A stretch of 64,000 bases of DNA, taken from Hormiphora californensis (Eukaryota; Animalia; Ctenophora). Of this stretch, positions 11,906 through 46,974 are shown one piece after another; position 1 is the first letter of the stretch, and the number at the start of each line of letters is the position of its first letter. The notes under the pieces were generated by a model. That model saw only the letters and a program-made list of their open reading frames with translations. It did no database searches and was not told the DNA's origin. Position numbers and translations under genes: made by a program. The stretch covers positions 5,642,001-5,706,000 of the forward strand of contig CM035360.1 of assembly GCA_020137815.1 (NCBI GenBank), in the 5' to 3' direction.

Positions 11906-14900
11906 ATGTCTGAGGATGGAGGGGATGGAGGGGACACTCCCTCAGCGGGGCAGGATCAAGATAGTTCCCGATTCCTGTTTGAGGAGAGATTCTTTACACT
12001 GTTCACTTTTCAACAGGATGGTGAGTGAGCTATCTATATCGGTCTCTCTCTCTCTCTCTCTCTCTCTCTCTCTCTCTCTCTCTCTCTCTCTCTCTCTCTC
12101 TCTCTCTCTCTTTCTCTCTATCTCTCTCTCTCTCTCTCTCTCTCTCTCTCTCTCTCTCTATCTCTCACTCTCTCTCTCTCTCTCTCTCTCTCTCTCTCTC
12201 TCTCTCTCTCTCCCCTACATCTCCCTTCTCTCCCCAGGTTGGTTATGCGACATCACCCTAGCGTGTGATGATGGAGTGGTACCCGCTCACAGGGTCGTCC
12301 TGGCAACCACCTGCACCTACTTCAGACAGATGTTCCGGTCGGCCATGGTTGAGAGTTCTAGTGATACCGTGAAAATGGTGGGATTCACTGTCGATACCAT
12401 GACAACCATTATTAGGTAACGATTCTATATCACCATGACAACCATTATTAGGTAATGATTGTAACCATGACAACCATTATTAGGTAATGATTCTATATCA
12501 CCATGGTAACAGTAATATAATGTAACATAGCTGTTGAAATTAGTACGATTTGAAAATTGAATAATAAATCTCATTTCCTTGAATTCCAGGTACTTGTATA
12601 CGAATGAGTTGGCATTGACCAGAGACACGGCGCTTCCTGTTCTAAGGGCAGCCAACTTGTTGTGCCTCAAAAAGGTGGAAGAAGCTTGCTGTGTAGAGTA
12701 AGTCTAGGTAGTACCCTTAGTGAGGGTCCTAAATCATTATTGATCACTAGTAGCTAGCTCCCTTTACCCCCCCTCTTTCAAGAACCTCTCATCTGCCCCT
12801 CAACCTTGTCAGCTAGTTCCTTCCACTCGGCCTATATCCCATAAACCCCCTTCTCTCCCGTGACCGTATTATCTCCTCCAGGTGTCTGGGACACCCCCCC
12901 CCCCCCCTCTCTCTCTCTCTCTCTCTAGCTCTCTCTCTAGCTCACCCTCCCCCAGGTATCTGGGAGTGTTGAACAAGGCCACTGCCCTGGAGTACGCACT
13001 ACTGACGGAACAATTCGGAATGACGGACCTGCTTCGCCACAGCGTAAGGTTATAATGCATGCCACAACATGACATATAATGCATGCCACAGCGTGTAATA
13101 TCCGAAGAATATATTTAGCTGAAAATTGGGCGGTTCTGGAAAATAATACTCCGTCTTGTCAGTATGAACCCCATTGCCGCCCACCCCATTGAACCATCAA
13201 ATAAAACTGCTCTTCTTTTTACAAGACAAGTCACAAAAGCACAGTAGAATATCACAGTTATTCTGTACAAATTATATAATTTAGTTCATATGTTGAAGTC
13301 CGTTTTAGCACAATATCTCTGGTCCGATATATATAACTCTGGATGGCCTGTTTATTTTGCGCCACCCATTACACGAGGGTCAAAAGTCCATCATCTTAGT
13401 TCAGCCTCTGGTCGTAGTAAGAGTAGGTGTCCTTATTACAGGTAGGGATCCCGCACACCTCCCACCTGTGGAACAGATTCGTGGTATAACACCACGCTGT
13501 CCTCTCTCCACTGGGGTTTCTGCAGTAGTTATCATTTCCGATTCCTCGGTTAGCGTAGGTGGCGCTGTGCCATCCGTGGGGGTGGGGGAAGTCGCTGTCC
13601 CAGTTTTGGCAGTTTCGGCCGTATCGGGTGGTGCTGACAGTACCTCGGTAGTGGGTTCCATCTCCGACTTGGCAGTCTCGATCCCACACACAGGAGGGGA
13701 CGTCACAGTACTCCCATCGGGTCTCGGGGTCGTTGGTATAGCACCAGGGTCTATCCATCTTACCACCTACAGGAGAAGGACAGATATTACCGAGGCGGGG
13801 TTGGAATAAAATGAGATGGGAGAGAGGTACAAGCTTTCGAGACAAACGAGGGTTCTCTTTCTAAAAATGAATAAGTTGGGACACCTCAACTCTTCTCACA
13901 CCTACCCGGGTTCCTGCAGTGGTTGTCCTCTTCTCCCAGATTATCATCATGCTGATGAGGGTGGGTAGAGTTCCAATACTGACAACTCTTTCCACTCACA
14001 GTGTAATCCCTGGTACCGGTATACTTGGCACCTTTCTCGGTGTAGCAGAACAGGTCATTGACCGTGGTTCGGGCACTCTTAGCTCCGTTATAGTTGAGAG
14101 CCATCTGGGAGAAGAGTGAGATGGTGTTAGAAGCCGATCTTTTAGCAAGTCTGGAGTTAAAAGTTCATTTGTACTTCTCTCTCCCCCCCCCTACCTCTCT
14201 TGTACCTCTCTCTCTCCCTACCTGGAGATCACTGTACTCTCCTCCCTCGGTCAGGAAGGTACTATAACCCTTTCCATTCTCTCCGCTGAACACCTCCCAT
14301 TCTCCCTGGAAGACCCGGACGGACCAGATTGTCTCCTCGAACGAGTCAGAGCTATCGTAGATCTGATGGGGAGAGATTGTTATTAGATTCTTAGATGTGG
14401 TGGGGATATGGGGCATAGTTGGACTTGGATCTAATGAGGATGGGGAATGGGGCATGGTTAGAGTTGGAACCATCGTAGATCTGGGGCATGGTTTGAATTG
14501 GATCTTATGAGGGCAGTTGTTATTGACAAGCTATATGGAGGAGTTCTGTAGTAATTTATAAGGGTTGTGTGACCCAATAACTGTATATTACCTCGATCTT
14601 CCTTCCTCCGAAGTTCTTCATGGTATAACCAGCCAGGACGGGACCCTTACAATCACTCTTACTGTCCGACCCCACAGTGTAGGTGAAGTGAGTGGCAGGG
14701 CAGGCATCACAGAAACTAGCTCGTTGGAACTCGGTATAATGTCCCAAAGCGCAGGGAATACACTGGGGAGAGTTGATGTGCTCACTGTAGGACCCAGCCT
14801 CGCACTGCACACACATCGTCTCACCTCCCACATACTGGAACCCAGGGGGACACTGCTCCCAGAAGCACTGAGAGGGCTGTTTGGCACCCAGGTCAGCAGT

Positions 14901-44803: not shown

Positions 44804-46974
44804 CTAGCAAACACCGCACGAAGAGGGACAGTTTGTTTCCATCCACGACTGATAGATGCTCCCATCCTCACAGTAGTCCAGACCCTCCCAGATGGGACAG
44901 TAGCTAGTGTAGACATCTGTACAACTAGAGTCCTCCTCTTCATCACTCTCAGTACTAGTCTCCTCATTATCAGTTGAGTCATCTGTAGAGTCGTCTGTAG
45001 AGCTGTCCGCCTCAAGATAAGGGAAGGAAGCCCAGTAGCTGTAACCATCATCACCACATCCCCTATCCAGTTTGAAGTACCCATCGATACCCCAGGAGGT
45101 ACCCCAGCTGTTTTTAATTAGCAGAGAATCAGCATCATACCCAACCAGGGTTACCAGGTGGTTACAGTCGTCTCCTAGGCAACTATCGACACTACCACTT
45201 TCATAGTAGTAGATGGTATCATCGACGTAGATACAGATTGCTACAGGTCCGTAGCTGCCCAGGTATGTCAACATAGAACTCTCGGCGTCGTATTCCCTCA
45301 TAACCTGGGAATGAAATTTGCTTAGTGTCCCGAAGAAGTTTGGAAGCTGTCTTCTCGCTGTAGCTCTACTTAGGTGGCCGCTCTTTTTAAATCAGAAAAC
45401 GAGTATTTCTGATTTTCTTTAAATTGGTGGCCAGTGGCTCGAATATACGAATTACGAACCCCCACCCCCTGCCGCGCCGTCACCCATCCTCATTTCCTCC
45501 CTCTACGCCCCCTAGCATCTACTGACCTTGTACCCAGTAAGACCCCCTGTCCTCACCACACATCCCTCCCTCTACACCCCACCACCCGGCACCCCCTCCC
45601 CAGCAATTACTGACCTTGTATCCAGTAAGACTGGCACCCTCCAGACCATTGGTTCCATCCCTCGAACAATCATCAGAGGTCTTCTCCCCCTCATATGACA
45701 CCTCACTCATCAGTGCAACATAGTCATTATCCTTGATGTCCGTGTATGCGGTAACCCACCATCCACCATCACAGCCGTAGTCGGCATTACAATCAATTAT
45801 CTGGAGAGAGAGAGAGAGAGAGAGAGAGAGAGAGAGAGAGAGAGAGAGAGAGAGAGAGAGAGAGAGAGAGAGAGAGAGAGAGAGAGAGAGAGAGAGAGAG
45901 AGAGAGAGAGAGAGAGAGAGAGAGAGAGAGAGAGAGAGAGAGAGAGAGAGAGAGAGAGAGAGAGAGAGAGAGGGGGATATTGTTAATCAGCTGTGTATAT
46001 CATTAGGGGAAGTGTGGTATCAATATGGCAGAACAATGAATGGACGACACTTCAGTTTTCAATACTCTGTAAAAGTAGGGCCTGTGTAGAAGGTTGGATT
46101 ATATTTCCTTACATGTTGTTCACTGAACTCCTTGAGCGTTCCAGTAGCAATGTAGTAGGCAGATTCCACGGTGGCAATGGCACCAAAACTCCAACAGGAT
46201 CCACACGTACCTGGGAAGATACAATATATTGACCGTCTCCTCACATTTCCCAGCTTGTCGACTCGACAATGTTCGAGTCTCTCGATCCCCTCACACGATA
46301 TTAATCAACTCAACAAGAAGGTCTCACTTCTCTCGATAGCATTCCTGGTAGTGGTAAATCAGCATCACAATACTAAATACCAACTATAAAATCCCAAAAT
46401 GTCATCACCTACCCTGATTCTTTACGTCAGTGACGGCTCCATAATCCCTCCAATCAAAGCTATCATCATCACTCCTCCTTGTCCTGGTCCTCCTCTTAGT
46501 CGGGTAGGGAGGTCTCACCATGTCAGTAGAATCCAACATGAAATCATCATCAACTACCTCCTCCTCCCACTTCGCCTTCTTCTCGCTCAGAATGGTCATG
46601 TTCAGACCGAGATACCCCTTCTTTTCATCATCACTCATCATGGCGAAGAAGTTCTCTCCCATCGTGAAGTGTCCCTCACCCCGCTCCTCCTTAAGCTCCT
46701 CAATCCTCTCCTTTGCTTTCTGGTACAACTTGAACCGCTCAGTCTTAGTCTCCTCAGTGAAGAGATCCTCTAGTCGGTGTCCAGGTCCTTTAGGTCCCCG
46801 GCCTGTTCTCAGCTCCTCTGCTTCACTCTCAAGAGAGTTACTCCACAGGGTGTTGAAGTTGGTCCTGGCTTCATTGGCAGCCTGGGCTCGTTCAGCTAGC
46901 CGCTGTTGGTAACGACTGTCAGCGAGCACGCTCACTAGGAGGACAGAGAGTAGGATGGACACAACTAGCTTCAT
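44804..46974 (-). CDS. Papain-family (C1A) cysteine protease with acidic linker and ShKT domain, tandem paralogue, 4 exons
   Basis: MKLVVSILLS..., VKNQG|TCGSCWSF, CNHLVTLVGY, IKNSWG, CTDVYTSYC...NCPSSCGVC. Confidence 0.92.

Follow-up and report, generated by a model that had tools for sequence, protein, structure and literature searches.

Copies of exon-intron junctions, arranged head to tail in the adjoining intron, recur throughout a 64,000-nucleotide (nt) window of the ctenophore Hormiphora californensis (assembly GCA_020137815.1, contig CM035360.1, positions 5,642,001 to 5,706,000 of the forward strand; all coordinates below count from the first base of this window). Local self-copies are present at 14 of 144 modelled junctions, about one in 10, and the 14 families, each set out copy under copy, are mirage minisatellites in the defined sense: a head-to-tail unit lies across an exon-intron boundary, and the splice signals are copied with it into the intron. 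The repeats belong to a known type, of which the ctenophores are a new host group. It is probable that these mirages are ordinary short tandem duplications, tolerated because the copy touching the exon still gives the original mRNA; the junction copies are likely harmless duplication debris and not a new splicing device. That exon edges are in addition mutational hot spots appears rather unlikely.

The junctions belong to 13 spliced genes with 72 introns, modelled by eye and by frame search with GT-AG borders. The families range from perfect arrays to pairs with only 8-12 shared bases; eight of the 14 pass a strict, unbiased self-comparison scan, and the exon borders are confirmed by RNA for four families and by homologs for those at 27089 and 38320. 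The register of the unit is not fixed, with 3-23 exon bases per unit and periods of 11-118 nt. On matrices derived from the window's own introns, the scores of decoy GT and AG sites fall inside the range that real ones span. A sequence-only reading of this DNA had listed 12 such repeats, on both strands and from perfect to decayed; all 12 are real, and two that it had missed, at donors 33759 and 38662, were added. The repeat 13051-13090, which by eye gave the impression of a donor copy, does not span its junction and was excluded from the count.

The junction copies are not due to chance. In a permutation test, a copy within 150 nt was found in the junction's own intron at 12 of 140 junctions, as compared to 0.66 expected from other introns. 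The self-comparison scan, which left out bases 1-2900, revealed 45 local repeats above its threshold, and two local shuffles gave none at that threshold. The periods of the fully coding repeats are divisible by three in five of five cases, as opposed to four of eight among the junction-spanning ones, which fits widespread duplication sorted by selection; the lack of a fixed register argues against a precise, splicing-linked reaction. Of the two explanations that the sequence-only reading had offered, the tolerance and subsequent expansion of junction-spanning duplications fits these data best.

Which copy is spliced can be followed in RNA contigs from marine metatranscriptomes, which are shallow and single and derive from other individuals, and in which minor forms could escape. 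Introns 14363-14591 (three RNA runs, two studies), 16150-16364 (one run), 27250-27514 (one run, joined directly) and 33759-33950 (two runs, two studies) are all joined at the exon-adjacent site, and none of the joints listed at these four bridged junctions, which represent four of the 14 families and no long array, leads to a decoy. RNA contigs near acceptors 27089 and 33598 start inside the exon (at 27099 and 33619), no loose contig end occurs at donor 37522 among those listed, and no covering RNA contig was found for the Kelch gene. Homologs provide further evidence: with the last copy at 27089, the enoyl-CoA hydratase protein aligns without gaps to five homologs at both affected acceptors, and at 38320 the last copy gives three extra residues relative to the homologs, to which the preceding copy would add 10 more. 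The view that the spliceosome must choose the last of many identical acceptors misdescribes 18463, where one near-full copy is accompanied by 13 shorter derived AG sites.

Internal donor decoys lead to a premature stop in 12 of 12 cases and scored acceptor decoys in 33 of 49, the frame being kept in the other 16 (all 14 decoys of the Kelch array at 18158-18437, plus 33569 and 38291). That the exon-adjacent copy preserves the frame, as the sequence-only reading had emphasized, is true; however, the geometry of any tandem duplication ensures it, and the in-frame decoys show that it is not exclusive to this copy. The supposed conflict with the rule that the first AG is taken was overstated: such scanning sets out from whichever branch point has been chosen, and each 30/34-nt unit of the array at 38320 holds a branch-point-like word, so that the choice is made among whole 3' modules and no scanning rule is broken. 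The branch-point word itself is weakly informative (35 of 70 introns versus 24 of 66 control windows).

DNA from a second individual was compared over 12240-18135. One contig of this sample is 36 letters longer at 17833, where the addition holds donor-like units, and several further intron insertions and deletions were seen. At 14387, two contigs end in 10 loose letters equal to window positions 14345-14354; the sample thus probably carries a new 43-nt duplication (14345-14387) over acceptor 14363. Copy number accordingly differs between alleles, visibly at 17833 and probably at 14345-14387. At 15766-16027 and 16484-16618, the intron of the second sample is different or shortened beside near-identical exons, which suggests very fast intron turnover. 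A published ctenophore genome report describes raised indel rates in introns (PMC8527503), a fitting background for the intron changes in this window.

The mirages probably formed in the following manner: Short tandem duplications would arise all over this compact genome, as the 45 local repeats illustrate, by a molecular route that is most likely slippage or repair. Selection would then act as a filter; exonic duplications would persist only in frame, as in the five of five observed, and junction-spanning duplications would by their geometry leave one intact junction, with the other copies ending up in the intron. For introns of some 190 nt and units between 20 and 90 nt long, chance alone is computed to make about one in five tolerated duplications span a junction. 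Some two-copy seeds may grow into arrays and most decay, as unit patterns and the second individual suggest. The spliceosome takes the exon-adjacent site, as observed at four junctions, presumably since no other site can pair across the complete exon with its enhancers, and nonsense-mediated decay likely hides most splicing errors. Exon definition and nonsense-mediated decay are adduced here from general knowledge of splicing.

A number of observations weigh against this account. Some decoys score at least about 2 bits above the true site, namely at 12416, 18463, 27089 and 33598; the scores favour decoys by ~1 bit (true sites were scored leave-one-out), and only larger gaps were counted. The 14 in-frame Kelch decoys would escape decay, and the silence of decoys in long arrays is an assumption. 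Further adverse evidence concerns placement, which was assessed within a window that had been chosen for showing this pattern, with transposon intervals drawn by eye. After removal of five fully coding events and 10 outside the modelled introns, 30 of the 45 events are left, or 24 without six transposon-linked ones; by a strict call, seven of these 24 intronic events span a junction and 17 do not. Seven exceeds the 3.2 expected when the unit is taken as the aligned length and all intron space is allowed (P 0.03), and the excess is also seen when transposon-linked events are kept (8/30 versus 3.35, P 0.013) or when two decayed donor arrays are counted as spanning (9/24 versus 4.5-5.4, P 0.016-0.047). 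In addition, 16 of the 24 events have a junction no more than 25 nt away, as compared to 9.4-11.4 expected (P 0.005-0.018, with a threshold set post hoc). An exon edge is found at a distance of 2-33 nt from each of the five copies of a miniature inverted-repeat transposable element (MITE), and acceptor 14363 seems to have been hit twice independently, its older decoy being 118 nt away, a reading that rests on 10 letters in two contigs. The excess at junctions appears under every null and amounts to 1.3-2.4-fold overall.

These observations raise the possibility that breaks or template switches favour exon edges, so that more duplications and transposon insertions would originate there, ahead of any selection. 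The causes considered are R-loops formed during transcription, the linker DNA that flanks exon nucleosomes, and words resembling splice sites that serve as microhomology. In its full form, this explanation makes exon edges hot spots for tandem duplication, MITE landing and whole-exon duplication, affecting ~1 junction in 10 and some of them repeatedly. Besides the excess in spanning and near-junction events, the graded decay and unequal spacings at 33598 are in its favour, and its best leads are the MITE positions and the repeat event at 14363. However, the statistical signal comes from a single window picked for its pattern and loses significance in short introns only (6/17 versus 3.4, P 0.10), upon placement within the host intron (seven versus 4.0, P 0.075) and when the unit is taken to be the whole period (4.5-5.4 expected, a 1.3-1.6-fold excess, P 0.13-0.26). 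The breakpoint register is not fixed, low-complexity pyrimidine tracts near acceptors ease both the formation and the detection of repeats, and the transposon intervals depend on the eye. For the seven of 24, the expectation for spanning varies with the null from 3.2 to 5.4 (1.3-2.2-fold, P 0.03-0.26): the excess is steady yet small, and the targeted mutational process that the sequence-only reading had put forward is not established. We consider hot spots that act before selection rather unlikely, and their extension to MITEs and whole exons a minority view of similar weight. Should an excess that precedes selection be borne out across the genome, it would link the position of junctions to the sites at which DNA breaks or slips, with consequences for intron gain and the sliding of splice sites. 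On the hot-spot view in its full form, mirages would arise in animals generally from a repair process linked to junctions, and the Kelch array, whose 14 decoy acceptors are in frame, would provide a natural assay of last-acceptor choice.

Tolerated duplication also has to be set against two explanations of a different kind. The copies could be functional, as spare sites for stepwise (recursive) splicing, for regulated unproductive splicing or for protein length variants. Consensus-level scores in many decoys and the 16 in-frame acceptor decoys are compatible with such roles, as are the shared bases of decayed families, which centre on the splice dinucleotide, although the way in which copies were detected accounts for part of this core conservation. 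AG-GT stands at four acceptor copies (12882, 18185, 27474 and 27487), as it would at ratchet points; recursive splicing was nevertheless rejected, as 12882, 27474 and 27487 leave remainders of 74, 41 and 28 nt, below the 97 nt of the shortest ordinary intron, and the RNA joint at 27514 is direct. Function of the copies is highly improbable: RNA at four junctions uses the exon-adjacent site only, unit periods have no frame bias, and the matching intron of a protease paralog has no copy of its relative's donor. It is equally remote that the long arrays are artefacts of long-read assembly. All four are known from the assembly sequence, and bases 1-2900, homopolymer-rich by eye, resemble unpolished long-read output; against this, the arrays hold recurring internal variants in a higher-order arrangement, most families are diverged repeats of two to five copies, and the donor-like units at 17833 recur in the second DNA sample. 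Introns made by introners or transposons were dismissed as well: junction copies match their own intron only (0.66 cross-intron matches expected), unit lengths vary, and the sole MITE target duplication is that at 38662.

For the individual families, shared bases are written with the exon side first at donors (exon + intron) and with the intron side first at acceptors (intron + exon). The BTB-Kelch gene (plus strand) harbours four: a donor mirage at 12396-12505 with three copies of donor 12416 (20+9 to 20+22, periods 36 and 32), both decoys of which lead to a premature stop; an acceptor mirage at 12873-12965, in which the modelled acceptor 12955 has one decayed copy, 12882, 74 nt apart (9+10); a decayed array derived from donor 17772 (17769-17836), with five further cores of at most 3+6 in 11-14-nt units; and the acceptor mirage at 18142-18471, where acceptor 18463 has its near-full copy at 18185 (43+8) and the shorter AG sites form 21-nt units, all 14 decoys being in frame without a stop. 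On the minus strand, the nested cysteine-rich/kringle gene has an acceptor mirage at 14354-14483 (acceptor 14363, two copies, 3+9, decoy 118 nt upstream) and a donor mirage at 16278-16368 (donor 16364, three copies with a core of only 4+6, the decoy cores being 16333 and 16298); in both, the exon-adjacent site is the one joined in RNA. In the enoyl-CoA hydratase gene (plus strand), acceptor 27089 terminates seven copies of a 36-nt unit (26851-27110), whose six decoys all lead to a premature stop, and acceptor 27514, the site used in RNA, has weak copies at 27474 and 27487 (27470-27520; 2+6 and 4+4).

The EXOC8 (Exo84) gene, also on the plus strand, contains an acceptor mirage at 33460-33605 with five copies, four of them decayed decoys of acceptor 33598 (best 6+7; spacings 38, 39, 28 and 30), among which the nearest copy agrees with the start of the exon over the greatest length. 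Its donor mirage at 33752-33817 pairs donor 33759, used in RNA, with decoy 33809 (7+9). Its array at 37583-38331 comprises 24 copies of acceptor 38320 in 30/34-nt units with a higher-order pattern; 22 decoys were scored, of which 21 lead to a premature stop and one to 10 extra residues. At the end of EXOC8 coding homology, a six-copy array (41231-41613; 64-67-nt unit, 23+34 to 23+37) contains the donor-like site 41254, which is only a putative donor because four ctenophore EXOC8 homologs end two residues beyond it. On the minus strand, a papain-family protease gene has a donor mirage at 45510-45631 (donor 45614, two copies, 17+17, decoy 45526 at 88 nt); it is the matching intron of this gene's paralog that has no copy of the 45614 donor.

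The donor copy at 38657-38794 (plus strand; donor 38662, 5+16) is a target-site duplication around the ~110-bp MITE and not a product of slippage. The five copies of this element (20341-20449, 20532-20647, 27265-27373, 31424-31532 and 38664-38775) have 15-bp terminal inverted repeats and, in four of five cases, an 8-bp target duplication, by which rule we take the MITE to be hAT-like; RNA contigs contain it in great abundance, next to many different flanking sequences.

The genome around the window is compact, with nested genes: introns have a median length of 192 nt and internal exons of 134.5 nt. Fourteen of 16 single exons queried gave a Pfam match, the names being BTB, Kelch, TNFR/ephrin-like and kringle, enoyl-CoA hydratase, methyltransferase, Exo84, papain protease (two), GH35 and C-type lectin. 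The best named homolog of the enoyl-CoA hydratase exon is from Mnemiopsis leidyi (77%), EXOC8 has a 78% match in a cluster that includes Mnemiopsis and Bolinopsis proteins, and the homolog search with a Kelch exon gave none at E 1e-8 among 38 candidates. Nested genes lie at 8732-10234, 13447-16680, 19503-20760 and 23855-24720; they include an intronless protein kinase in an intron of an AARSD1-like gene on the same strand, the cysteine-rich/kringle gene and a second gene without assignment in Kelch gene introns, and a C-type lectin gene in an intron of the hydratase gene. Tandem papain-family paralogs (42220-44066 and 44806-46975) have three intron positions in common, and a ShK domain ends the second only. 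In the beta-galactosidase gene, whole-exon tandem pairs (52090-52314/52349-52570 and 52710-52880/52913-53080) are spaced by only 34 and 32 nt, with 29/75 and 28/56 aligned residues identical; both copies of the first pair match GH35 positions 174-245, and the pairs are likely mutually exclusive exons. By eye, a palindromic (fold-back) element of ~1.35 kb occurs twice, in introns of different genes (about 5150-6500 and 39395-40740), with similar sequence near 60470-61770, and reverse-transcriptase-like stretches, presumably of the long interspersed nuclear element type, occupy the minus strand of hydratase introns (about 25640-26690 and 27990-30760), RNA contigs mapping on the latter.

These findings extend mirage repeats to ctenophores and call for caution among gene annotators, as decoy sites often score like real ones. 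The acceptor arrays are natural substrates for the study of 3' splice site choice among near-identical neighbours.

In the literature searched, with most subscription journals outside it, no report that connects minisatellites with introns in ctenophores was found, nor any genome-wide enrichment study of such repeats; the accessible parts of PMC10078293 and PMC8527503 hold no statement on junction-spanning repeats. In the available excerpts, the Rogers model derives intron gain from tandem duplication of AG/GT sites (PMC3087553), and variable internal tandem repeats are described at human exon-intron boundaries (PMC2812944); the raw material is the same, a short intragenic duplication with a splice signal, but the duplications described here lengthen existing introns, and no new intron is shown. 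Human donors with a variable number of tandem repeats (VNTRs) are closer relatives: F7 intervening sequence 7 (IVS7; 37 bp), CBS IVS13, 6-16, lamin B2 and PDGF are named in one report (PMC1557585), according to which the most upstream of identical donors won in the F7 experiment, two pseudo-sites were used in CBS and 6-16, and early results on duplicated splice sites conflict. There, the repeat starts with a unit that crosses the exon-intron border, pseudo-donors further downstream are for the most part silent, and splicing takes the most upstream donor, just as it does at 16364 and 33759; in contrast, the human cases are donors only and rare per genome, whereas half of the families here are acceptors and ~1/10 of junctions is affected, and pseudo-site use as in CBS and 6-16 was not seen in the shallow RNA.

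The closest counterparts are the mirage minisatellites of amphioxus, of which that in Adh3 is reportedly subject to somatic instability. In the sections available, they are described for Adh3, the globins BflGb6 and BflGb9, troponin C and PGBD5, with units of 10-160 bp across donor or acceptor borders, AG/GT kept, copy number variable between haplotypes and normal mRNA (PMC3087553, PMC3902484). The ctenophore repeats share the border-spanning units, the occurrence at both donors and acceptors, the preserved AG/GT, a variable unit length (11-118 here) and copy number differences between alleles; at the four of 14 families with RNA, the joints at the exon-adjacent site would fit normal mRNA as well. 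They differ in their host, which is a ctenophore and not a cephalochordate, and in comprising many decayed two-copy pairs and one transposon target duplication.

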